DNA of 64,000 bases from Candidatus Oxydemutatoraceae bacterium (GTDB lineage Bacteria > Pseudomonadota > Gammaproteobacteria > Poriferisulfidales > Oxydemutatoraceae). Under the pieces are notes generated by a model, which saw only the letters and a list, made by a program, of their open reading frames with translations, was not told the DNA's origin and did not search any database. The stretch spans positions 1,504,001 to 1,568,000 of the forward strand of contig CBDCOZ010000003.1 of the NCBI GenBank assembly GCA_965220085.1, written 5' to 3'. Below are positions 8,068 through 20,560 of the stretch, piece after piece. The position numbers and the translations under genes were made by a program. Every line of letters begins with the position of its first letter. Position 1 is the first letter of the stretch.

Positions 8068-8293
8068 GAGGGCAAGCCTCGCACTTGCGCCCATCGTCGT
8101 CCCCCGTTTCGGTGAGGGGGCAAGTCTCGCGCTCGCGCCCGTCATCGTTCCCCGCTACGGTGCGCTTGCGGGGATAGTGCGAGGCGTGTCGGAGTAACTA
8201 CCGCCCTACCCGCCAGACCATCCCTCTTCGCTTGCCGACTCCCCCACAAGGGGAAAGTGTCATAGTGCGAGAAGGAATGCCGGTCGGCGCCCG
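8068..8293. repeat. Conserved palindromic intergenic module, copy 1 (REP/BIME-like)
   Basis: gcaagcctcgcacttgcgccc..tcatcgttccccg..gtgcgcttgcggggatagtgcgagg..ggagtaactaccgccctacccgccag, shared with copies at 9038, 12200 and 20439. Confidence 0.75.
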
Positions 8294-8829
8294 CTACCGC
8301 AACGGCCCTTCCAAGAAGAGACGCAAGCGCAAGCGCACATCGGGAGACACCAGGTTGATGGTCATGGTGGCATCAGACCCGGAACTCAGCTCACCGCCGG
8401 CCCTGACATAGAAAGTAAAGTCGACGAATTCGGGAGTCGCAGGGTGCAAGACCAGAGGATGATAGGTTATGGTGCCGATGTCATCCGCTAACACAGTCTG
8501 GCTCACAACGGCGGCGGAGCCGCGCACCCGCAACCTGCCAAGACCATTATCAGGGATACTGCTGATGGTTACGCTATCCAGGGGATCGCCATCCGCATCG
8601 GTAAAAGAAAAGTCGGCCTTTTTGAATACATAGGGGTTGTCTGCGGTGGCGTTGGTGAACACATCTATGCTGCTATCGATGACCATCGGCTTAGCCGCCT
8701 GAGCCTCGGCGCAGAGCGCAAACAGGAGCGGCAGAACGAGCGACCAGAGGCTAAGCCGGGTTACCCTTGCCCGACAATGCGGGGGGGGGGGGGGGGGGGG
8801 GTATTTATATTAGTGATTATGTAATTCAT
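8294..8829 (-). CDS. Secreted single cadherin-like domain protein with FLEGPLR tail; out of frame at poly-C tract
   Basis: RBS AGGAGGAG and ATG 8829 (MNYIITNINTPPP). The C21 tract puts the ATG out of frame with signal peptide HCRARVTRLSLWSLVLPLLFALCAEAQA and ORF 8294-8686. Leader is homologous to the in-frame gene at 20232. Confidence 0.8.
8781..8801. repeat. G21 homopolymer, candidate phase-variation tract
   Basis: 21 G; ATG 8829 to ATG 8686 is 143 nt, so 19 or 22 G would be in frame. Confidence 0.85.
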
Positions 8830-8868
8830 AGTTCTCCTCCTAATAGTAAAAGATAGAAAAAACATTAT

Positions 8869-8952
8869 TAAGCATCCTGCTAAGTCTCTTGTTAAGTGCT
8901 CCGCTAAGTATCTTGCTAAGTCTCCTGTCAAGTCTCCTCTTAAGTATCCAAA
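8869..8952 (-). repeat. 7 x 12-bp degenerate tandem repeat in putative 5' UTR (RCAGGAKACTTA on mRNA strand)
   Basis: Plus-strand units taagcatcctgc, taagtctcttgt, taagtgctccgc, taagtatcttgc, taagtctcctgt, caagtctcctct, taagtatccaaa. Confidence 0.8.
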
Positions 8953-8996
8953 GTCACACCAGATGTAAGAGTTGATTGCTTAAATATCCTCTATAC

Positions 8997-9043
8997 GTAT
9001 TCGTGTGAAGCCTGCATTATACAGAATATCTCTCCGAGCGCAA
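8997..9043 (-). promoter_or_regulatory. Putative sigma70 promoter (TTGCGC-N16-TATAAT); 47-bp block identical to 20398-20444
   Basis: Perfect TATAAT at 9016-9021 on the minus strand; exact duplication upstream of the paralog. Confidence 0.65.
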
Positions 9044-9272
9044 ACTTCGTACTTGCACCCGTCATCGTCGCAGATTGTACACGGTGTTTGCATTGCCCAA
9101 GCGCAAGCCTCGCACTTGCGCCCGTCATCGTTCCCCGTTGCGGTGCGCTTGTGGGATGCGCGCGCGCGTGCCGGAGTAACTACCGCCCTACCCGCCAGGC
9201 TACCTCCTTCGCTTGCCGGCTCCCGCGAGCAGAGCATGCCGCATAGTGCGAGGGCGTGTCGGGCGGCGCCCG
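9038..9272. repeat. Conserved palindromic intergenic module, copy 2
   Basis: Includes hairpin gcgcaag-cctcgca-cttgcgc (9101-9121) and ggagtaactaccgccctacccgccag. Confidence 0.75.
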
Positions 9273-10778
9273 CTACCGCAACGGGCCTTCCAAAAAGAGA
9301 CGCAACCGTAGCTTGAGCGCAGAGGGCCGTTCCGGCAATACCAGAAAGATGTTCAGGGAACTGGAATTAGCGCTGATCCTGTTGCTGGCGCCATCGCTGC
9401 CATCATCGGTCACTTTGAAGGTGAAGAAGCTGTATGCCGCCATCGGATTGTCGGGATTTTTGGTGGGCAACTGGTTCGGCGCCGGATAATAGGTCAGAGT
9501 GCCGGCCTCAAGTTGCGCCGCTGTTACGGTAGTCGCTCTGGCGATAGCTACGCCGTTCAGGGACATGGTTCCGGGGCCGTCCAGGCTGCTGATGCTGACT
9601 TCAGCCAGCATGTCTTTATCGGCATCTTCGAACGGAAAGTCGGATGGGCGGAACACATAGGGGTCAGCGGAAGTGGCGGTGGTGGATACCGGAATCCTGT
9701 TGGTCAGTGACATCGGCGCATCATTGACATTGATGACGACGGCGGCGGGGGCGTTGCACAGCGGCCCCTCGGGGTTGCCATCGTTGTCGTCGAAGCTGAC
9801 GCAGACGCGCAGATAGCGGCCGGACTCGGCATCGCCGGGGGTGAAAGTGGTGCTGAAAGTGGAGCTGGTTTGGCCCGCGATGGGGGCATAGTCGTCATCG
9901 GCGGGGGCATTTGCGTTGTCTGCGGGCACATCGGCGGATTGCCATTGCCACATCAATGTGCTGGTGCTGATGCCATCGGGTTCGGTTATGCCGGTGTCGC
10001 TGGCGGTCAGTTCGACATCCTCGGCGGCGGCGGGCGTCACTGTGGGCGCGCCGGTGGCGACGGTGTTCGGGGGCGTGGTGCCCATGGCCTGCACTATGAC
10101 ATTGGCATTGAAGGCGGTAAGGTCGGTTGGCACACCGCCGGTATTGCTACCTGGGTTGATGGTGGCGTGGTGGTAATTACCTGTGGAGCGGTCGGCTTGC
10201 CTGGTCTCGTCAAAGTACACCAGGGCGTAGATGCATTTGCCCTCATCCTCGGCCGCCACTGTGTAGGTCTGGTTGCTGTCGCGGGCGGCAAAGAATGTCA
10301 CGGAGCTGGTGACCGCGGTATCGTAGGCATCGGCATTGCCGGAGGGGACACTCTTGGCGCCGGTGGCGGCGGGGTCGCCGGCGCAGGAGCCGCTGTCGCC
10401 GACCGGCTCTATGACCCAGCGATATCTGGCGTTGCCGTGGGGGAGCCCCGTGTGGTTGATGGCACCGGGGGCGCGGGTGCTATGAATGGACTTGTTGTTG
10501 GAGAAGTGGGGGCTGTACTGTGAGTCGGCGCCGTAGGGGGTCAAGACAGAGTTGGTAGCCACGCGACAGACCTCGCCTACGGCCACATGGGGACTCAGTG
10601 GGTCCGGGTCCATGGATACGGCGCTGGCGTCGGCCTCGCATATCAGTTGCAGATACTGATTTCTGTACTGGTCGGGGGCATCGTTGCGGTGGGCATCGGC
10701 CGCGGATGCGAGAAGCAACAGCGCGGCGAGGGCTGCGTACGCGGCGGCGGCAAGGATGGGGGTGATTTGCCTGGTCAT
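9273..10778 (-). CDS. Secreted modular adhesin-like protein (unique N-domain + Ig-like + cadherin-like) with FLEGPLR tail
   Basis: Sec signal peptide; WQWQ...YLRVCVSFxD domain; NDAP...FPFxDAD...LTYYP...FTFKVTDDG cadherin-like domain; ends LKLRLRLFLEGPLR. Confidence 0.85.
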   Translation of the reverse strand: MTRQITPILAAAAYAALAALLLLASAADAHRNDAPDQYRNQYLQLICEADASAVSMDPDPLSPHVAVGEVCRVATNSVLTPYGADSQYSPHFSNNKSIHSTRAPGAINHTGLPHGNARYRWVIEPVGDSGSCAGDPAATGAKSVPSGNADAYDTAVTSSVTFFAARDSNQTYTVAAEDEGKCIYALVYFDETRQADRSTGNYHHATINPGSNTGGVPTDLTAFNANVIVQAMGTTPPNTVATGAPTVTPAAAEDVELTASDTGITEPDGISTSTLMWQWQSADVPADNANAPADDDYAPIAGQTSSTFSTTFTPGDAESGRYLRVCVSFDDNDGNPEGPLCNAPAAVVINVNDAPMSLTNRIPVSTTATSADPYVFRPSDFPFEDADKDMLAEVSISSLDGPGTMSLNGVAIARATTVTAAQLEAGTLTYYPAPNQLPTKNPDNPMAAYSFFTFKVTDDGSDGASNRISANSSSLNIFLVLPERPSALKLRLRLFLEGPLR

Positions 10779-11530
10779 GGCATGAACTCCGGTTAGCGGG
10801 TTAGCAGAAAATCCGTCGCCGCAAGCCCGGGAGCCGGAGGCGATTTAGCGGAACCTGGTCGCCACTGCACACTGTTTACACTGTCGGCGCAACGGCGTGT
10901 ATGGCGCCAGCACATATTGGAAATTTGGGGCGGATATTGTGTAATTTGTGCCATGGGCGCTTGAAGTTCCAGTCCATAGTGTGGTCGTTGGGTATTAAAC
11001 CATAGCGGGTAGTTTATCATACGCTCATTGAATTCCCGCATATCGGTCAGCAACAAGCCATCTTCAAACTCCGCGAACTCTTCCTGAAGCGCGCGGTTAA
11101 AACGCTCATTGAATGCGTTCATCTTCGGGCATTTCGGATACGTGCAGCAGTGGCGGATACCTTGCTCTTGCAGGCAGCGATCAAACGCGCCGCAGAACTC
11201 GGAGCCGTTGTCGGCGAGCGCTTGCTCTATCTCGGCGGGAAAAACTTGCATCACCAACTTCACAAAGAACTCGGCAGCGACCGTTACTATGAGGGACGCC
11301 GATAGCGAAGTTAAACCGGTCATCAAACCGGCTATGCGAGCATGGTACGCAAACAATTTATCGGTTTCGCCGGCAATCAATCGTGCGATGATGCGCGGCT
11401 TGGGACAACGCAAGCCGCGCTCGCCACACCACGGTTGAATCAGCAGGTATGGCTTGGGTGCGCAAACAATGTTTAATGAGGCACAATAATAAGAGGCACA
11501 AACAACTTTGTTGTTTGTGGCTTCTTGATG

Positions 11531-11622
11531 AGAGCACAGTAATAAGAGCACAGTGATAAGAGCACAGTGATAAGAGCACAGTGATAAGAGCACAGTGATA
11601 AGAGCACAGTGATAAGAGCACA
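11531..11622. repeat. 14-bp tandem repeat AGAGCACAGTGATA x6.5
   Basis: Units at 11531, 11545, 11559, 11573, 11587, 11601 and a partial at 11615; flanked by palindrome cacaaacaac-ttt-gttgtttgtg. Confidence 0.95.
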
Positions 11623-11631
11623 AACAACTTT

Positions 11632-11775
11632 GTTGTTTGTGTGTCCTTAGATTTGTTGTTTGTGTGTCCTTAGATTTGTTGTTTGTGTGTCCTTAGATTA
11701 GTTGTTTGTGTGTCCTTAGATTAGTTGTTTGTGTGTCCTTAGATTAGTTGTTTGTGGTTTCTTAAGTTGTTTGTG
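11632..11775. repeat. 23-bp tandem repeat GTTGTTTGTGTGTCCTTAGATTW x5 plus partials
   Basis: Units at 11632, 11655, 11678, 11701, 11724 and a partial at 11747. Confidence 0.95.
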
Positions 11776-12199
11776 TTCCACAAACTGTTTGCGGGTTGTT
11801 TATGGGGTGCGCCATGGAAGATAGCTTGGGGGATAGTTTTCGCGGTGTCGCCGAATCTCTGCGATTATCTCCGGAGGCCAGTTGCGCCGGCGTGGCTGGC
11901 GCGGGCAAGCGCTCTGGTTGACTAAGCCGTTAATGCCATAGTCCTGGTATTGTTTCCGCCACCTATAGAGTGATGAGCGGCTGACATGGCAAGCGTCCAT
12001 AGTGGCTTCTATGCCGTGTTCCTCCCATAATGCAAGGGCTTCAAGTTTCTGTTTGGTTTTATAACTCATAGCTGCCTCCTTTGTTGCCAAAGTAGCTATT
12101 TTATAGAAACCTTTGACGCCGTAGCCGATGTGTTGTAATTGCACGTCGGCTACGTCTGCTGTTGAAGCCAAGAATCCAGAATGTTTCTGGCATTATGCA

Positions 12200-12401
12200 G
12201 CCTCGTGCTTGCGCCCGTCATCGTCCCCCGTTGCGGTGCGCTTGCGGGGATAGTGCGAGGGCGTGTTATGGAGCACAAACAATACTCAATTGTTTGTGGC
12301 TTCTTAGGAGTCACTACCGCCCTGCCCGCCAGAATATCCCCCCTTCGCTTACCGACTTCCGCGAGGGGAATCATAGCGCGAGGCTTGTCGGGCTGCGCCC
12401 G
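12200..12401. repeat. Conserved palindromic intergenic module, copy 3, with an inserted CACAAACAA palindrome
   Basis: Same module as the other copies, with an extra ~40 bp gagcacaaacaatactcaattgtttgtggcttctta at ~12271-12307. Confidence 0.75.
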
Positions 12402-14381
12402 CTATCGCAGCGGGCCTTCCAGGAAGATGCGCAACCGCAGGCGCAACCCCGTCAGATTGATGGACATGTGGCGGTTTCCGCTGGACCGGCTGCCATCGCT
12501 TACAGAGAATATGAAGCTGGCATAGTTGGCGGTGGGGGCGGTGCCCGCCGGGGGATACCAGGTGAGGCCGCCCAGATTGTCGGCGGGCACTCTGATTCCG
12601 CCGACCACTGGGTCGCCGCCGTAGCGGAATGTGCCTGCTTTTGTGGTGGTGGCTATGCCGATTTGGTCCAGGGCCGCGCCCTCATCCTGGTCCATGAATG
12701 GGAAGTCGGAGATCTTGAAGATGTATGGATTATCGGCATCTGCCGAGATGGGCACATCCACCGAGGTATCGGTGCTGGTGGGCGCATCATTGGCATTGGT
12801 CACCTGCTCCCCGGCGGAGCACAGGGTGGGGGCGGCGATGGTGCCGCCCTCGGATGCCGGGGTGGCATGGCTGTCCATAAAGAATACGCAGACCCTTATG
12901 TACATGCCCACCTGGGGTTGGTCGGGGACGAATACGGCATCATCGGCCGCGTCTATGGGCGCATAGTCGGCGGCGGCCGGGGTGCCGCTGGCGGGGGCGG
13001 CGGCCTGGTACCATTGCCAGCGTTCGGTGTCGGTGTTTATGCCGTTGGGTTCGGTTATGCCCATGGTGCTGGCGCGCAGCTCTTCATCCTCGTCGTAGGC
13101 GGTGCCGGTCAGGGAGATCACTGAGGGGCTGCCGGTGGCGGCGGCCTGGGTTGCGCCCAGCAGGTCTATGGTGAGGGTGGATGCGTCCACCGCGGTGTTG
13201 GCGGCTCCGGTGCTGTCATCGCGCACTCTGTAGGTGAAGCTGTCGTAGGCATTGCCGGGGGTGGCACCAGTGGCGGGATAGTATGCCAGGGCATTCAGCT
13301 GGGTCAGGCTCAGCTGGGTGTTTGCGGCTATGGTGACGCTGGAATCGCCCGCCACCACCAGGGTGCCGCCGGTCGGCGGGCTGGCGATGGTGATTCCGTC
13401 CAGGCTGTCGCCGTCATCGTCCATGAATGGGAAGTCGCCGCTTGCAAAATCATGCGGGCTGGCAGCGGTGGCGGTGGTGGACACCGTCACAGTGGAATCG
13501 TCGCCGATGGGGGCATCGGCAACCTCGGCGATGATGGTGCTGGTGGAGCACAGGGGGCCTTCGCTGGTGGGGGTGGAGAACATGTCCATAAAGCTGGCGC
13601 AGACGCGGATATATTGGCCGACATGGGCCTGCAGGGGAGTGAATGTGTTGTCGGTGGCCCCGGCTATGGCGGCAAAGGTGCCGCCGCTGGTGGCGGATTG
13701 CTGCCACTGCCACATCAGGGTGGCGGTGTTTATGACATTGGGTTCGTTGATGCCTGCGGTGCTGGCGGTCAGCTCCACATCCTCGTTGTGTGCCGTGCCG
13801 CTGCCCGCTGCGGCGACAGTGGGCGCGCCGCTGGCGGTGGTTGCCGGCGCCGCCACCAGCCTGATGCTGAGGGTGCCGCCACTGGCAGACTTCTCGCCGC
13901 CAGCGGTCACACTGTATACAAAGTTAGCGTAGGGTTGCGCGGGCGGGGATGGGGATTGGCCCGCTGCCGGATAGTAGGTTATGGTGCCGATGTCGGCCAG
14001 TGCCACATCCATCATGGATGAGGCGGAGATGACGGTGGAGCCCACCCTCAGCGTGCCGATCAGAGTGCCACGTTCCAGATGCACTATTTCCAGCGCATCG
14101 TCATCGGCATCTTCGAATGCAAAATCAGCCGCCTTGAAAGTGTACGGAAATTCTGCGGTGGCACCGGTGAATACCTCTACGGTAGCGCCACTGGGCGCCG
14201 GCTTGGCCTGGGCGACCGGACCCCCTGCGGGTGCTGAGTCGCTATGCGGTTGCACCGGTGCGTGACCGCAGAGCACAAACAGGGCGAGCAGGGCTGGCGG
14301 CCAGAGGCTGCGCCTGCTCAACCGTCGCCCAGAGGTCCCGGGAGGGACATCGCAGATAGCGGGGGATATGCGGATATTCAT
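12402..14381 (-). CDS. Secreted modular adhesin-like protein (3 cadherin-like + 2 Ig-like domains) with FLEGPLR tail
   Basis: Signal peptide RRSLWPPALLALFVLCG; alternating domains; ends GLRLRLRIFLEGPLR. Confidence 0.87.
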   Translation of the reverse strand: MNIRISPAICDVPPGTSGRRLSRRSLWPPALLALFVLCGHAPVQPHSDSAPAGGPVAQAKPAPSGATVEVFTGATAEFPYTFKAADFAFEDADDDALEIVHLERGTLIGTLRVGSTVISASSMMDVALADIGTITYYPAAGQSPSPPAQPYANFVYSVTAGGEKSASGGTLSIRLVAAPATTASGAPTVAAAGSGTAHNEDVELTASTAGINEPNVINTATLMWQWQQSATSGGTFAAIAGATDNTFTPLQAHVGQYIRVCASFMDMFSTPTSEGPLCSTSTIIAEVADAPIGDDSTVTVSTTATAASPHDFASGDFPFMDDDGDSLDGITIASPPTGGTLVVAGDSSVTIAANTQLSLTQLNALAYYPATGATPGNAYDSFTYRVRDDSTGAANTAVDASTLTIDLLGATQAAATGSPSVISLTGTAYDEDEELRASTMGITEPNGINTDTERWQWYQAAAPASGTPAAADYAPIDAADDAVFVPDQPQVGMYIRVCVFFMDSHATPASEGGTIAAPTLCSAGEQVTNANDAPTSTDTSVDVPISADADNPYIFKISDFPFMDQDEGAALDQIGIATTTKAGTFRYGGDPVVGGIRVPADNLGGLTWYPPAGTAPTANYASFIFSVSDGSRSSGNRHMSINLTGLRLRLRIFLEGPLR

Positions 14382-14431
14382 TGAATTACTCCATGGGTTG
14401 ATGAACAGGTTTGTGCGCCGGGCTTTTCGCT

Positions 14432-14462
14432 ATTCTACCACAGACGCGGAATCATTTTGCAA
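14432..14462 (-). promoter_or_regulatory. Putative promoter (extended -10 TGGTAGAAT, TTGCAA upstream)
   Basis: Motif match ~50 nt upstream of ATG 14381. Confidence 0.4.
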
Positions 14463-14481
14463 GTGACCGGGCCCGGGCAGG

Positions 14482-14511
14482 CAAAAAAGGACCCGGCGCA
14501 GACCACCGGGC
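14482..14511 (-). terminator. Putative intrinsic terminator
   Basis: CCCGGTG-gtctg-CGCCGGG followed by TCCTTTTTT on the minus strand. Confidence 0.45.
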
Positions 14512-14750
14512 TTTCGCTCAAAGAGATCGGACTGCCATCGCAGGCGGGCCCGCAGGCGCAGGTCGCTCTGCGAGGCCTGCAGGCTGAATTTGCGGGTGTT
14601 GCGTTACCAGTGCGGCTGTGCCATTGAGGGCGGCCGCCGAGGCTGTCGCAGTTGCTGCCCAGAGAGGCGGTTATGCCGCTCCGCCGGTCTGGTTGGGCCT
14701 GGCGGCTATGTCCGGGCTCAGGACTGTCACGCTTGTGGGTGTCGCTTATC

Positions 14751-14858
14751 TGGCGGGCGGCGCCTGCTATCGCAACGGCCCTTCCAAGAAGATGCGCAAG
14801 CGCAGGAGCAGATGCTCCGCCAGATTGATCGTGATGGCGGCGGCGGCGGCAGAGGTTT
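14751..14858 (-). pseudogene. Orphan 3' fragment of a FLEGPLR-tail gene; direct repeat of 18624-18731
   Basis: Encodes TSAAAAAITINLAEHLLLRLRIFLEGPLR-stop (stop 14767-14769); first 76 bp identical to 18624-18699. Confidence 0.85.
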
Positions 14859-15337
14859 ACGCGCAAAGGGAAAGTTTGGCAGCGATTGCGATATTTGTTA
14901 ATTTTCGCCTTGCGCCGATGACGGCGCCGCTACTGTCGCTGATTGGGCGGCGGCATTAGTTTTGCTTTGCCATTTCATCGCGATAACGGGATGGGTTTGC
15001 ATGATGCGCGCCAAGGCGGACATTCCGCCGGCGCATTGGTTTGCGTATTTTGCTCGGCTGGGCTTCGGACTGATTGCGCTTGCGACCTTGGCGACGACAG
15101 CGGGGCATTTTGCGGCGGACGCTTTGCCGCCTTTTGCGGTGACGTGTTTGCTGTTTTTGAGTCCGTCTTATTTTTTGCGCATGGTGACGCGGGATGACAA
15201 AGCGGGAGTCGGTTTTGCGGAAGGATTCTTCGGGGATTAAAACTCTCGTTCCGCGCGGGCTGGCGCGGACGAAATGGGAAACGCACGGGAGCATTAATTT
15301 TGCATTTTTTACGGAGAGGCACAGACTCCGGGATACT

Positions 15338-15346
15338 TGTTATAAT
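15338..15346 (+). promoter_or_regulatory. Extended -10 promoter (TGTTATAAT) 9 nt before ATG; near-leaderless transcript
   Basis: TATAAT at 15341-15346, ATG at 15356, no Shine-Dalgarno between them. Confidence 0.55.
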
Positions 15347-15355
15347 ATCCCCGTC

Positions 15356-16606
15356 ATGAACACCCTTGCATTTGAATCCGCCCCATCCGTCGCCGCCGCC
15401 CTTTTTGGGGAACGGGCGGCGCTGTTGCCGTCGGTGACCGAAGTTTTTGAGTTGGAGCTTGCCTTGCTGGAGCTTGGTCAACTCGCGCCCCGCGAAGCCA
15501 TTGAGCGCGGAGCGTATTTTATGAAAATCGGCGGCAAGCCCACCCGCCATTTTTCCATGTGCGCCGCCAATGGGGTCGCCCGCAAGGGACAATCCGCCAT
15601 GACGCGGGATTACTTTGAGGCGGGGCGGTTTTCCACCGGATACTCCACCCATTCGCTGTTCCCCTATCGGGGAAAGTTCCACCCGCAATTGGCGAAAGCG
15701 CTGATTAACATTATCGGCATCCGCCCGGGGCATCTCCTGCTGGATCCGATGTGCGGGAGCGGCACCGCCAATCTGGAGGCGGCGCTGTTGGGAATCAATT
15801 CGGTGGCGGCGGACAAAAGTCCGTTTTGCCGCTTGATGACCCGCGTTAAGCGCGAGTCACTCGACATTGGGCGCAAGGATGTTGAATCTCTGCCCGCCCG
15901 GGCGGACGAATTGTTCGCCTTTTTTGGCGAGCAAGGTGTCGCTCAAAAATATTCCGAAGTTCGCGACGAGAAAAAGGGGCGCATTTTTGGACTGTCGATG
16001 CTCGCGTAGTTGGACGCGATGGGCTATGCGGAGCGGGTGAAAAAATCCGGACATCGCGAGTTGTTCGCCAAGGTGTTGGCGCGATACGCGGCCACCGTCG
16101 AGCGGGCGTTGGATTTTTTGCCAAAGAGCGGGCTGGGGAATGTGGACATCCCCGAAAACGGCGATGTTCTGGACATACCGCTGCCGGACAAAAGCGCGGA
16201 CGGAATCATCACCTCTCCGCCCTACTCTTTCGCCATTGACTACGCCGCGAACGATTCGCCGCAACTCTCCTACTTGGGGTGCGACATCGCCGCTCTGCGC
16301 GAGGAAATGATCGGGTTGCGCGGGCGCGGCAAAGCGGCGCGGCTGGAAAATTACTTTGCCGACATGAACCGCGCCTGCGCGGAAATGGGGCGGGTTTTGA
16401 AGCGCGGGAAGCACTGCGTCATTGTCATCGGCTCCAACACCAATCAAACCGGCGGCATTCGACTGGAGGGCAAGGTGATAGAGGGGTGCGAAGCGGCAGG
16501 GATGAACTTGATACGAACCGTGCTGAAACCCATCAAGGGCATGCGCAACACGATGAGCGAAGAGCATATCCTCTTCTTTCGCAAGAACGGGGGAAAACGG
16601 CAATGA
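15356..16606 (+). pseudogene. DNA methyltransferase (probable N4-cytosine, SPPY) with an in-frame amber stop
   Basis: PYRGKFHPQL, LLDPMCGSGT (motif I) and ITSPPY (motif IV); both halves in the same frame, separated by TAG at 16007-16009. Confidence 0.82.
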
Positions 16607-17605
16607 CCGCCCCCCTGTTGACCGCCGAGGAAAAGTGCGCCCGGGTGTTCGCAAAGAACACCTATTACTTTTTCGACTCCGACGAGCAGGATTCGCACGA
16701 GGGACACATTCACGCTCTGCGGGAGATTTTGACGGGACTGAAAGCCCGGGTCGAATCCTGCCGCGACGAAGAAGGCAAGAAGCGGGCGTTTGACGACATG
16801 CTGGCGGAGCGGGAACATGGGTTGCGCGCCCTGCTGGCGTTGACCGGCTTTTCCAACGAATCCCTGCGCCGGATTGTCACGCTGGCGCGCATTCGGGACG
16901 ACAGGGAATTTGACCGGATAGTGAATAAGAGCGAATGGCTTGGGCCCGGCGACAAGTTTGGCGCAAATGGAAAGGAGTGGAAGGATGCGAAAATTGCCGG
17001 GCTCATCCGGAAAAATCCCGCATTCCGGAGGGGCATTGTCAATTTGTTTTTTGAGGGCGCATCGGTGCCGTTCTTGGCGCGGACGCTGCCGCCCTTTGAG
17101 TTGCGGAAATTTTCGCTGGGCAAGTTGAATTTCGATCCCGCCGAGATGCTGGACACGCTGGTCCGTTACAAGGAAAAAGGGCCGCATGCCGCCAAGGGCG
17201 GCAACAATGCGGAAACCGCGATTGCCCTGCGTCATAGAGGCGCGGGGACTCCCCTGCGAAAGGGGGGACTTGCCCAAATTGGCGGAGTTTGAACCCTCGG
17301 CGAAGCGGACGATGGACTTCATCATTCCCGACAAAAACAATCCGAAGGTCGTCATTGAATGCTCCTACCTGACCACCACTTCGTCCGGACAAGGAGACAA
17401 GGCGAAAACCGAACTGGCGATTCGGGAGTTGCTGGCGCGACACTACCCCGCTTGCAAGTTTGTGGGGTTTCTGGACGGAATCGGCTGGATGGTTCGCCGC
17501 TCCGATTTGAAGCGCATGGTTGGCGCTTTTGACGATGTGTTCACCCTGCGCAAGGACGAGTTGACGCGCTTCGCCGCCCTGCTGGACAAGATTGGGGGCA
17601 AATGA
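16603..17605 (+). pseudogene. DpnII-like type II restriction endonuclease, frameshifted
   Basis: MDFIIP...IECSY...TTSSGQGDK...GFLDGIGW; ATGA overlaps at both ends; one extra C at ~17225-17227 separates the halves. Confidence 0.75.
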
Positions 17606-18597
17606 CAATGTCCGCCAAATTGATACAGGAGGGGATCCGCGAGGGCGACTGCTTGGCGGGGATGTCGCGCCTGCCGGACTCGTGCGCGGACATGGCGTTC
17701 GCCGATCCGCCGTTCAACCTGCGGAAGAAATACAAGGCGCACAAGGACCGAATGGAGATGGACGACTACCTCCGCTGGTGCGAGGAGTGGCTACGCGAAA
17801 TGGTTCGCGTTGTGAAGCCCGGCGGGGCGATTTTCGTCCACAACATTCCCAAGTGGCTGACTTTCTACGCCGCGATTCTGAATCGCCTGGCGGTTTTCAA
17901 GCACTGGATCGCCTGGGACGCGCCCACCTCCCCGATGGGGAAATCGCTGCTGCCGTCGCATTACGGCGTGCTGTATTACATCAAGGACGGCGAGCGCGCC
18001 AAGTTCCGCGACACGCGCTTTCCGCATCCGCGCTGCCGCCGTTGCGGAGGGCTGCTGAAAGATTACGGCGGAAAAAAAGACGGGCTACATCCGTTTGGCC
18101 CGCTGGTTTCGGATGTGTGGACCGACCTGCATCGCATTCGCCACAGCCGCCATCGGGACGACCATCCGTGCCAATTGCCGGTGCCGTTGCTAGAGCGGCT
18201 GGCGCTGATGAGCACGGACGAGGGCGACCTGATTCTGGACCCGTTTATGGGAACGGGAACAACGGCGATTGCGGCGGCGCGTCTGGGGCGTCGGCATTTG
18301 GGGTTTGAACTGTCGCCGGAATACGCCGAGATTGCGCGCGACAAAGTTGACCGCATTTCGGCAAATTCGCGGCTGGGCGACGCTTGGGTTTCTTTTCACC
18401 TGAACCAGCCGGTCACCATTCGCGACGCCGATTGGGAGAGCATCGCGCCCTTTTTCATCATTCCGGAGCCGCGGCGGGAAATTGACCGCGTCAAAATTCA
18501 ATTGCGCGGAAAGTTTGACGCAACAGCGGCTTGCGAGTGCAAACAGGGATATTCGCAGCCCTCTCTGGTGCCAATAGCGGCAAAAGCGGGCGGATAG
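17602..18597 (+). CDS. Beta-class N6/N4 DNA methyltransferase
   Basis: FADPPFN (motif IV) precedes HPCQLP and LDPFMGTGTT (motif I); intact. Confidence 0.9.
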   Translation: MTMSAKLIQEGIREGDCLAGMSRLPDSCADMAFADPPFNLRKKYKAHKDRMEMDDYLRWCEEWLREMVRVVKPGGAIFVHNIPKWLTFYAAILNRLAVFKHWIAWDAPTSPMGKSLLPSHYGVLYYIKDGERAKFRDTRFPHPRCRRCGGLLKDYGGKKDGLHPFGPLVSDVWTDLHRIRHSRHRDDHPCQLPVPLLERLALMSTDEGDLILDPFMGTGTTAIAAARLGRRHLGFELSPEYAEIARDKVDRISANSRLGDAWVSFHLNQPVTIRDADWESIAPFFIIPEPRREIDRVKIQLRGKFDATAACECKQGYSQPSLVPIAAKAGG

Positions 18598-18639
18598 GCC
18601 GTCTCCCGCTCTTCCCCAAGGCGTGGCGGGCGGCGCCTG

Positions 18640-20232
18640 CTATCGCAACGGCCCTTCCAAGAAGATGCGCAAGCGCAGGAGCAGATGCTCCGCCAGATTT
18701 ATCGTGATGGTGGCAGCGGTGGCGGAAGTTTTGTTGCCGCTGCCATCGCTGCCATCGTCGGTTACCTTGAAGGCGAAGGCGGCGTAACCGGGCTGGGCAC
18801 TCTGCTCGGCCGCCGGCCAGTAGGCGATGGCGCCGATGTTGGCGGCGGTCACGATCCGACCGACAGTGGCGTCAGCGCCATCCACTTGCAAGGTGCCGGC
18901 GCCCGGCAGGCTGGCAATCTCCACACTGACCAGATTGTCGTCGTCCTCATCGGCAAAGGGAAAGTCGGCGGCGGTGAATCTGTAAGGCTCGCTCATGGTG
19001 GCATCCGCCGACACATTTATCGCGCGGTTTTGGGCCCGAGGCGCATCGTTTACGTTGCGCACCCGGGCGGCGGCGGAGCACAGATCCTCCACAGTCTCTG
19101 GGGTCTCGTGGAGATCCTTAAAACTGATGCAGACCCGGATGTACAGTCCCACATGCGCCTGCAGGGGGGTGAATAGTACCCCGGTCGCGCCGTTTATGTC
19201 GGCAAAAGCGCCATCGCTGGCGGGGGATGACTGCCATTGCCACCTCAGAGTGCTGTTGTCTATTCCATTGGGTTCGGTGATGCCATCGGTGCTGGCGGTC
19301 AACTCGGCATCCTCAGCGTAGGTCGGGTTGTCCGCGGTGGTAGCCGGGATTATTGAGGGTCTGCCAGTGGCGGCGGTCTGGTCCGGCGATGTCAGAGTGA
19401 TCCTGAGGTCGGCACCAACGCTGGTTTTATTGTCAGTGCCATCGTCGCCATCATCCACCACTCTGGCCTGGAATGATGCTGTGAATGGTGATCTTCTCTG
19501 GGCTGGCGGTGGCGGATAATAGGTCAGGGCACCGGCGGCCAGTTGGACCACGGTTATGGTTCTTGTGGGCGTGTTGCTCTGGGTCAGGTCTGTGTCATCC
19601 AGGGTCATGATGCCACTGGAGGGCTGGCTGTGTATGATGACACCGGCCAGCATATCGCCATCGGCATCGGTGAACGGAAAGTCGGATGCCCGCAACGGAT
19701 GCGGGTTGTCGGCATCGGCGTTTGCATTTACCGTAACAGTGGCATTTTGTGACACCGGCTTGTCATTGACATTGGCCACAGCGGTGGCTATCTGCAGGCA
19801 TCGCTGCTCGGCATTGCTGGCGGTGTCGGTGAAAGACGCGCAGACCTGCAGAAACTTGCCCACCTCGTCATCGCCCGGAGTGAATGCGGCATTGGTCGCC
19901 ATGGCGATGGCGGCGTAGGCGCCGCCATTGGTGTCGGCCGCGCTCCACTGCCAACTGAATGTGCCCAAGCCATCGGTGTCGGCTATGGCGGTGGAACCGT
20001 TGCCGCCGTTGGCGGTGATGGCGGAGTCCTCAGTGGGAACCATTATTCCGCTGGCGTAGGCCACCGCTGGCATGCCGGTGGCCGGGCTGTTGGTCTGCGC
20101 CTGCACCTGACCGCAGAGCGCAAACAGGAGCGGCAGAATAAGCGACCAGAAGCTATGCCGGGTTACCCTTGCCCGACAATGCGGGGTAGGGGGGGGGGGG
20201 GGGGTATCGATATTAAGTATTTTGTGATTCAT
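18640..20232 (-). CDS. Secreted modular adhesin-like protein (2 Ig-like + 2 cadherin-like) with FLEGPLR tail; poly-C tract in frame
   Basis: RBS GAGGAGGAG, ATG 20232 MNHKILNIDTPPPPPTPHC, signal peptide; ends LLRLRIFLEGPLR. Confidence 0.87.
   Translation of the reverse strand: MNHKILNIDTPPPPPTPHCRARVTRHSFWSLILPLLFALCGQVQAQTNSPATGMPAVAYASGIMVPTEDSAITANGGNGSTAIADTDGLGTFSWQWSAADTNGGAYAAIAMATNAAFTPGDDEVGKFLQVCASFTDTASNAEQRCLQIATAVANVNDKPVSQNATVTVNANADADNPHPLRASDFPFTDADGDMLAGVIIHSQPSSGIMTLDDTDLTQSNTPTRTITVVQLAAGALTYYPPPPAQRRSPFTASFQARVVDDGDDGTDNKTSVGADLRITLTSPDQTAATGRPSIIPATTADNPTYAEDAELTASTDGITEPNGIDNSTLRWQWQSSPASDGAFADINGATGVLFTPLQAHVGLYIRVCISFKDLHETPETVEDLCSAAARVRNVNDAPRAQNRAINVSADATMSEPYRFTAADFPFADEDDDNLVSVEIASLPGAGTLQVDGADATVGRIVTAANIGAIAYWPAAEQSAQPGYAAFAFKVTDDGSDGSGNKTSATAATITINLAEHLLLRLRIFLEGPLR
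20189..20204. repeat. G16 homopolymer, candidate phase-variation tract (ON)
   Basis: 16 G; reading frame continuous. Confidence 0.85.
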
Positions 20233-20272
20233 GAGTCTCCTCCTCATAGTAAAATCTTATATAAGAGCTATT

Positions 20273-20406
20273 TAAGTCTCCTGTTAAGCCTCCTGCTAAG
20301 TATCTTGTTAGGTCTCCTGCAAAGTATCCGTACGAAGCATCCTATTAAGCATCCTGCTAAGTATCTTAATTAAGTATCCTGTTAAGTCTCCTGTTAAGTA
20401 TTCGTG
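20273..20406 (-). repeat. ~11 x 12-bp degenerate tandem repeat in putative 5' UTR
   Basis: Units taagtctcctgt, taagcctcctgc, taagtatcttgt, taggtctcctgc and others; 8 carry GGA on the mRNA strand. Confidence 0.82.
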
Positions 20407-20444
20407 TGAAGCCTGCATTATACAGAATATCTCTCCGAGCGCAA
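20398..20444 (-). promoter_or_regulatory. Putative sigma70 promoter, identical to 8997-9043
   Basis: TATAAT at 20417-20422 (minus strand), TTGCGC at 20439-20444. Confidence 0.65.
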
Positions 20445-20560
20445 GTCGCACTTGCGCCCGTCATCGTCCCCCGCTGTGGTGCGCCTACGGGAATCGCGCG
20501 AGGGGCGTACCAGAGTAACTGCCGCCCTGCCCGCCATGCTACCCGCCAGACTGCCCCTGC
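20439..20560. repeat. Conserved palindromic intergenic module, copy 4 (diverged)
   Basis: gcgcaagt-cgc-acttgcgc hairpin, ccgtcatcgtcccccg, and gagtaactgccgccctgcccgcca. Confidence 0.7.

Follow-up and report, generated by a model that had tools for sequence, protein, structure and literature searches.

Several of the sorting signals known from bacterial envelopes are short and terminal, and study of the LPXTG, PEP-CTERM and GlyGly-CTERM signals and of the C-terminal domain (CTD) of type IX secretion has in each case revealed an envelope machine dedicated to the signal. These signals in their usual definitions, together with the beta-signal of outer membrane proteins (OMPs), the donor strand of chaperone-usher fibres and the barrel of classical autotransporters, form the background for the element described here. 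It lies in a window of 64,000 nucleotides (nt) from Candidatus Oxydemutatoraceae bacterium, positions C3:1504001-1568000 (contig C3) of a 2.49 Mb, three-contig genome, in which a family of minus-strand genes for secreted proteins ends in a shared peptide, FLEGPLR with its upstream residues, called the tag below. The tag is a real, modular and terminal element under selection as a peptide, standing at the C-terminus in 216 frames of the genome and at the N-terminus in three. As judged from comparison with the closest foreign homologues, it has substituted in evolution for the type V beta-domain in a family descended from autotransporters, a barrel-for-tag substitution that is new and that the preliminary description of this window had overlooked. 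On balance, we lean slightly towards the reading that the tag is a lineage-specific sorting or docking strand which replaces autotransporter barrels and is predicted to be recognised in trans by a shared envelope component.

Four minus-strand open reading frames (ORFs) of the window (8294-8686, 9273-10778, 12402-14381 and 18640-20247, named below by their first coordinate) finish in LRLRLFLEGPLR or LRLRIFLEGPLR, followed by TAG, which agrees with the shared C-terminus claimed in the preliminary description. The orphan copy claimed there is also present, a fifth LRLR(L/I)FLEGPLR that ends at 14767 within a 29-codon open frame. A degenerate DNA pattern for FLEGP matched the window only at these five sites, while shuffled sequences gave a mean of 0.74 matches and reached five in 1 of 100 cases. 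The 130-residue ORF at 8294 is not a fragment; it belongs to a whole short gene, 8294-8830, whose leader and body are split by a 21-nt poly-C tract. The signal peptides claimed for the family hold in part: N-termini resembling them are visible in the 9273, 12402 and 18640 genes, and for the 8294 gene the claim is qualified, with one in the body frame. The tag-bearing features of the window are as follows.

8294..8830, minus strand: short family gene, with an ATG leader start at 8828-8830, poly-C at 8781-8801, a signal peptide and one beta-sandwich domain.
8297-8338, with TAG at 8294-8296, minus strand: tag of the 8294 gene, whose leader is out of frame with the body in this assembly.
9273..10778, minus strand: family gene of 501 residues with a signal peptide; tag at 9276-9317, TAG at 9273-9275.
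12402..14381, minus strand: family gene of 659 residues; tag at 12405-12446, then TAG.
14767..14856, minus strand: orphan 3' end with 29 open codons; tag at 14770-14811, TAG at 14767-14769.
18640..20247, minus strand: family gene of 535 residues; poly-C at 20189-20204, in frame in the leader; tag at 18643-18684, TAG at 18640-18642.

A further, Cys-rich family member on the minus strand starts near window position 2100, and its tag ends at C3:1503894, ~107 nt before the window.

A search of the 18640 protein against a collection of 5.8 billion proteins returned its own paralogs and relatives found only in ENA. The ENA homologues P0021, P0028, P0032 and P0037 (46-56% identity) bear PF03797 autotransporter barrels according to precomputed annotation, and none of the 19 ENA sequences inspected carries the tag at its end. 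Over residues 56 to 503 (...HTMTINL), the 12402 protein aligns colinearly with the P0028 passenger at 47% identity, up to ...HMSINL in the gene; beyond this point 16 residues remain in the 12402 protein, as opposed to 413 residues of linker and barrel in P0028. No PF03797 match exceeded the cut-off in this genome, the best reaching 18.7 bits against a 26-bit cut-off, and none was found in the four window proteins. Tblastn with the barrels of the relatives recovered two remnants only, one at C3:835582-836031 and the other in the window at 14535-14779, directly 3' of the orphan tag. The window remnant matches the P0032 barrel (E 4e-5 and 1e-3), the two remnants share 74% identity over 239 nt (blastn, E 1e-36), and barrel homology starts 12-19 nt past the stop of the orphan tag. 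Because the closest foreign homologues bear the barrel where our proteins bear the tag, and because a remnant of it lies 3' of the orphan tag, we conclude that the tag has replaced the type V beta-domain.

Derivation of the tag DNA from barrel DNA was considered and rejected, since blastn and global alignment leave the tag unaligned and the homology begins past the stop. The last strand of the remnant, LRLRARLRW, matches the first nine residues of the tag at six of nine positions without gaps, a likeness that is only a hint, since so brief and periodic a match does not establish descent. The orphan and the 3' end of the 18640 gene share a nearly identical stretch of about 100 nt. We infer that the 18640 gene was once an autotransporter in which a tag cassette replaced the stretch from the passenger end to mid-barrel, and, because those ~100 nt are duplicated at the orphan and the 18640 gene, that a restriction-modification island later parted the gene from its old flank. 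Beyond this genome, none of the 18 genomes examined from the same family has a PF03797 match over cut-off, and all 11 from the sister family do; the tag repertoire occupies the niche of the autotransporter repertoires of neighbouring lineages. In the sister family (G022, G024), one genome of ~2.0 Mb holds 32 PF03797 matches, and a second contains frames of 8,845 and 12,365 residues finishing in autotransporter barrels. The remnant, the island and the other features between and beside the family genes are listed here.

14528..14779, minus strand: decayed, frameshifted barrel remnant (last ~80 codons, ending ...SDLRLRARLRW), found by tblastn and blastn.
15194..18597, plus strand: restriction-modification island, lying between the 18640 gene and the orphan tag with its barrel remnant.
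15194-16606, plus strand: split N6/N4 methylase (two ORFs) in the island.
17186-17605, plus strand: DpnII-like endonuclease in the island, reduced to its C-terminal part.
17602-18597, plus strand: intact N6_N4 methylase (E 3.9e-45) in the island.
10793..12171, minus strand: insertion-sequence debris between two family genes, with an rve_3 integrase-core fragment (10793-11623) and a helix-turn-helix transposase N-terminus (11800-12171).
8094-8293, 9073-9272 and 12202-12401, minus strand: three copies of a ~200-nt non-coding repeat 3' of the tag, with indels between copies that are not multiples of three.

The ~200-nt repeat holds a CCCCG...CGGGG inverted repeat and recurs near 20400-20500, upstream of the 18640 gene; downstream of other tags of the genome, different repeat types are found. 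Poly-C tracts stand in the leaders of family genes on the gene strand at 8781-8801 (21 nt), 20189-20204 (16 nt) and 2049-2065 (17 nt). The frames of leader and body differ at 8781-8801 and agree at 20189-20204, a pattern that fits putative phase variation.

The window copies belong to a much larger set. A six-frame scan of the genome for F[LIVM][EQ]G[PA]L[RQ] found 221 frames, 216 of them with an immediate stop (TAG 136, TAA 52, TGA 28), the position of the stop being fixed while its identity varies. A codon-degenerate DNA pattern of the tail matched 212 times in this genome and not once when read backwards. Tail ORFs of at least 150 residues number 180; eight exceed 3,900 residues, the longest having 15,193, and the tail ORFs total 478,809 nt or 19.2% of the genome, an upper estimate counted from the first possible start codon. 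Two family members, C2:77511-79106 and C3:360158-362104, carry mutated tags (...FLEDPLR and ...FLEGSLR), possible natural loss-of-function alleles.

The conserved unit comprises 14 residues, [LIV]-R-L-R-L-R-[LIV]-F-L-E-G-P-L-R. Its 216 copies fall into 183 distinct 36-nt versions and only 15 distinct 12-residue versions, and 201 copies have one of the three peptides LRLR[L/I/V]FLEGPLR, which differ in the residue at -8. Codon differences between tag versions are synonymous in 88% of cases; for the 12 codons immediately before the compared stretch the value is 5.6%. Entropy is close to zero at second codon positions and ~1 bit at third ones, with variation confined to third positions and Leu first positions, and it reaches ~2 bits by ~10 nt past the stop. 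Because of the many DNA versions of few peptides, the synonymous share and this entropy pattern, a DNA element is not the main constraint, and the peptide, not the DNA, is the main target of selection. The preliminary description had claimed selection on the peptide from synonymous differences among the window copies; those differences were confirmed, and the claim is upheld genome-wide by the synonymous excess. Each residue of EGPLR is unchanged in 213-216 of the 216 copies, 214 of which end in ...PLR, and Leu, Ile or Val occupies positions -14, -12, -10, -8 and -6 in 197-214 of the 214 tails that were read at each position. Taken as a strand, residues -14 to -5 alternate, with five Leu/Ile/Val on one face and R, R, R, F and E on the other, and the invariant G-P-L-R comes after this stretch.

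The bodies to which the tag is joined differ widely. When the 80 residues preceding it were compared across the 180 ORFs, they formed 14 clusters without BLAST links (61, 42, 33, 14, 11, 10 and 2 members and seven singletons), which bears out the earlier claim of an independent module on divergent bodies. Pfam names among tail-bearing bodies include PPC repeats, He_PIG and the eukaryote-type Cadherin PF00028 (seven stretches, E 3.3e-73), and Cys exceeds 4% in 38 of the 180. An AlphaFold2 model of the last domain and tag of the 12402 gene, built from an 11-sequence alignment (mean predicted local distance difference test (pLDDT) score 81), shows a beta-sandwich closed by strand 106-113, with the tag (115-128) as a coil whose pLDDT drops from about 70 to 55; the tag is thereby placed outside the sandwich and is not modelled as the last strand of the preceding domain. 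A Foldseek search of the modelled domain against PDB gave no match at E <= 0.001, generic beta-sandwiches only, and Pfam and NCBIfam returned nothing over cut-off for the four window proteins, the best being Cadherin_4 at 23 bits against 25.1. Since Foldseek found no significant match, the 'cadherin-like' label given to this domain is based on weak Pfam matches and on the PF00028 domains of other members.

Five of the 221 tag frames have no immediate stop: two resemble read-through accidents, and three are paralogous leaders in which a signal peptide and ~25 residues are followed by LRLRLRVFLEGPLR, a GGS-rich linker and the body. Pfam recognises PPC repeats in two of these N-terminally tagged bodies (E 4.6e-20 and 8.2e-35) and nothing in the third, whose reading as a serine protease comes from motifs seen by eye only. 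In a further PPC-repeat protein the tag is C-terminal. Because PPC-repeat proteins show both N- and C-terminal copies, the tag is used at either end within one domain family, which fits a docking strand and not an enzyme requiring a free C-terminus.

Outside this genome the tag is rare. When 1.84 billion representative proteins were searched with a profile of the tag, there were 70 matches at E <= 0.001, all at the extreme C-terminus, of which 68 are proteins of this genome (>=99.4% identity, tblastn) and two are foreign; the profile is short, so that our own N-terminal copies fall below its threshold and diverged or internal tags elsewhere could be missed. The foreign protein P0074 has 415 residues, a signal peptide, a body 34.5% identical to the family and the end ...LLLRLRLFLEGPLQ; it has no relatives at E <= 1e-5 beyond the family in this genome and a single protein from the Joint Genome Institute (JGI) collection. 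The second, P0115, is a partial FN3 protein from a metagenome-assembled genome with the end ...LRLRLRVFLEGPLQ, and both tails read ...FLEGPLQ. The tag is not an artefact of recent duplication: restriction to recent paralogs, raised beforehand as a possible outcome, was not observed, given the 14 unrelated contexts and the two foreign proteins. The resemblance to a KVFLEGP strand of Bacteroidota proteins, suggested in the preliminary description, found no support, as the profile matched only our own proteins and the two foreign ones, each at the tail. The tail DNA pattern had no match in 40 related genomes from this family and order, in genome contigs or in metagenome contigs, and a relaxed pattern allowing R or Q at the end had none in genome contigs. 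Three metagenome-contig matches of the relaxed pattern were rejected as short chance ORFs on low-GC contigs. Searches for the tail peptide strings found no relevant paper in the literature searched.

According to the reading we favour, a portable terminal tag on predicted Sec-exported surface proteins would take over the job of the autotransporter beta-domain. By beta-augmentation, the tag strand would pair with a beta-edge or groove that a single, shared component of the envelope exposes, FLEGPLR would supply the specificity, and more than 200 interchangeable, phase-variable, adhesin-like proteins would be tethered, possibly with aid in export, without barrels of their own. Recognition in trans, beta-augmentation, and surface tethering or export are thus the inferred parts of this proposal.

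Several results weigh against this reading. The preliminary description had proposed a dedicated exporter, anchor or scaffold; no such partner was identified, and no receptor for the tag was found. Starting from 216 non-tail proteins picked by our own signal-peptide rule, we dropped 18 (11 paralogs or tail variants, six under 110 residues and one of 4223 residues) and scanned the remaining 198 (20 + 120 + 58) with Pfam, polytopic membrane proteins being filtered out of the set; these 198 candidates contain nothing dedicated, only housekeeping envelope machinery. Nor did comparison of genomes, suggested earlier as a route to a co-occurring partner, reveal any known component that co-occurs with the tag. 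A crude signal-peptide rule applied genome-wide found a leader in 91 of the 180 tail ORFs of at least 150 residues. Finally, with the tag nearly confined to one genome, gene conversion could explain part of its uniformity; it does not explain the synonymous excess, because conversion would not produce such an excess.

The envelope machinery that is encoded includes the beta-barrel assembly machinery (BAM) A-E, SurA, Skp, DegP, Lol, Lpt, Tol-Pal, TolC, DsbA and DsbC, a full type II secretion system and an S41 peptidase with a PDZ domain. BamA is the single Omp85 protein of the genome. The usher family (PF00577) had no matches in the genome, with a positive control in E. coli; TpsB/ShlB (PF03865) had none either, with a model whose control reached the cut-off in no control genome, and the absence of Slam/DUF560 matches is uninformative, its control being positive nowhere. 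TamB was found neither in this genome nor in 40 relatives (41 genomes). Sortase, exosortase and rhombosortase were absent from the 198 candidates, and no search aimed at these families was made. The type II system was discarded as a co-occurrence clue, since GspM is present in 17 of 18 tag-less genomes of the same family. A complex prediction of BamA (765 residues) with the last domain and tag scored 0.00 in both runs, made without controls, and counts as evidence neither way.

Two small OMP-like proteins, C3:320869-321666 (...IIWFNFSLPR) and C3:1191560-1192315 (...LLFGYSWELDM), have four extra residues after an end resembling the beta-signal. The first, which had no homologue in a word-indexed search of the 5.8 billion proteins and has a paralog and weak relatives in one neighbouring genus, is a shortlist candidate only. 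The genome also encodes six paralogous secreted proteins of 319-351 residues without the tag (C3:189880-190851, 190862-191821, 216775-219025, 335530-337636), two of which were scanned and gave weak Trypsin_2 matches under the curated cut-off. Sel1, TPR, RCC1, TIR and pentapeptide-repeat proteins are present too, and genes for SoxY/SoxZ and flavocytochrome c sulfide dehydrogenase (e.g. L055, L061, L085) point to sulfur oxidation. Neisserial DNA-uptake sequences, considered as a clue to the taxon, were absent from this genome for seven of eight dialects, with one copy of the eighth.

Within the favoured reading, the BAM lateral gate is a tentative candidate for the receptor. It would suit a tag that replaced a BAM-dependent domain, that has a ten-residue strand with an all-Leu face, and that resembles LRLRARLRW at six of nine positions; the lack of a terminal aromatic residue, the Phe on the polar face and the many Cys-rich bodies argue against it. 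With DsbA and DsbC present, such bodies would fold before crossing, and they speak for export by the type II system, after which the tag would act as a tether by docking to a receptor in the outer membrane, a route we regard as equally tentative; giant proteins of up to 15,193 residues argue against it. The larger part of the probability goes to some other receptor or route. A bolder version, to which we give a minor share of belief, is that these proteins are barrel-less autotransporters, for which a 14-residue strand, perhaps descended from the last strand of the barrel, suffices to deliver the passenger in trans to an outer-membrane machine that all of them share. A single translocator or anchor, either the BAM lateral gate or a receptor not yet recognised, would then serve more than 200 phase-variable adhesins, in a new mode of outer-membrane secretion or anchoring with the shortest known sorting signal of a diderm bacterium. 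If the tag does direct export or anchoring in trans, a symbiont could run a huge, switchable adhesin repertoire without the cost of a barrel per gene. The defined peptide would be a handle for receptor fishing and a possible minimal surface-display tag, and, were the receptor BAM, it would bear on the minimal sequence that BAM needs to engage a client.

Among other explanations, donor-strand self-assembly and a membrane anchor survive best, and we consider each of them quite unlikely. In the former, the tag would insert into a beta-sandwich, either in another member of the family or in a scaffold, for which the PPC-repeat proteins are an example, making fibres or a cellulosome-like array. Its alternating hydrophobic residues are like those of pilin donor strands, AlphaFold2 models it as a free extension beside Ig-like sandwiches, and either terminus is usable, PPC-repeat proteins being tagged at one or the other; however, both the preceding and the N-terminal domains differ among the 14 contexts, no common acceptor is evident, and the genome has no usher and nothing to anchor the assembly on the cell.

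The membrane-anchor explanation dispenses with a protein receptor, the cationic amphipathic strand binding lipid A or lipopolysaccharide phosphates or lying in the outer leaflet. The composition of the strand, in which three or four Arg point to one side and five Leu/Ile/Val to the opposite one, would suit such a role, as would the position independence of the tag and the failure to find a protein partner. The near-invariance of E, G, P, L and R speaks against it, and so does the near-identical tail of a foreign protein only 34.5% identical in its body, which argues for a specific protein-binding site; moreover, the backbone hydrogen bonds of a single beta-strand stay unsatisfied inside a membrane.

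Very improbable is a processing or degradation tag read by a periplasmic protease, for example the S41/PDZ tail-specific peptidase or the secreted trypsin-like paralogs, in which case the tail would govern maturation or turnover and have no part in the mature, functional protein. Both kinds of enzyme are encoded, and the tail is rich in Arg, yet PDZ-type recognition requires a free C-terminus and the tag also occurs internally, between signal peptide and GGS linker. A degron on 19% of the coding capacity of the genome is hard to rationalise, and barrel replacement would be left unexplained.

We give hardly any credence to a recombination or termination cassette at the level of DNA, a 3' homology anchor for gene conversion comparable to the Sma/Cla repeat of neisserial pil loci, with the peptide incidental. 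Such an element could account for the likeness of the window copies, which extends ~19 nt beyond the stop through a small GC hairpin, and for the orphan cassette abutting the barrel remnant at an illegitimate junction. It is largely refuted by the 183 DNA versions of 15 peptides and their 88% synonymous differences, by the use of three stop codons, by the climb of entropy soon after the stop and by in-frame use at N-termini; a role of the DNA may coexist with that of the peptide but cannot be the main constraint. That the tag is the ordinary last beta-strand of a cadherin-like domain common to recent paralogs is almost certainly wrong, for although the tail is strand-like and directly follows a beta-sandwich, strand 106-113 closes the modelled sandwich and leaves the tail as coil, and the 14 contexts and N-terminal copies point the same way.

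Set beside known systems, the tag matches none in full. As the preliminary description had stated, it is not an autotransporter barrel, an RTX signal, or a PEP-CTERM or GlyGly-CTERM anchor: no such Pfam or NCBIfam model matches the window genes, and there is no hydrophobic helix. Type I (RTX) substrates lack a Sec signal peptide and have Gly-rich nonapeptide repeats before an uncleaved C-terminal signal, whereas tag proteins have signal peptides and the window proteins have no RTX (PF00353) match. Two-partner secretion (T5bSS) differs in its TpsB partner, for which PF03865 gave no match (its control staying below cut-off everywhere), BamA being the sole Omp85 protein found. The type IX CTD is likewise a C-terminal tag on scores of surface proteins in one genome, but it is a folded domain of ~70-100 residues from Bacteroidota, in contrast to a 14-residue, coil-modelled tag in a proteobacterium, without an NCBIfam match. 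With LPXTG/sortase, PEP-CTERM/exosortase and GlyGly-CTERM/rhombosortase the tag shares a short invariant C-terminal motif on many unrelated secreted proteins of one genome; it differs in lacking a transmembrane helix and a basic end cluster, in having Arg at every second position and in that FLEGPLR appears to work at the N-terminus.

Like the donor strands of chaperone-usher systems and the dockerin-cohesin pair, the tag is a terminal module with the potential to join many different heads to one common acceptor, and like dockerins it stands at either terminus; here, however, there is no usher and no acceptor domain was identified, and the tag is far shorter than a dockerin. The OMP beta-signal recognised by BamA/BamD resembles it as a C-terminal amphipathic strand with alternating hydrophobic residues, in a genome whose only Omp85 machine is BAM, and differs in its terminal aromatic residue, for which the tag has LEGPLR after Phe, with that Phe on the polar face; the OMP-like proteins of this genome themselves end in ...F. 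From classical autotransporters (type Va) the tag proteins differ in having no 12-stranded barrel (PF03797), since 14 residues cannot form a pore, and in that the tag also occurs on families other than passengers, including Cys-rich ones, and at N-termini. With them they share the passenger family, the Sec signal peptide, a tag at the position of the barrel and, in the same genome, the remnants of barrels.

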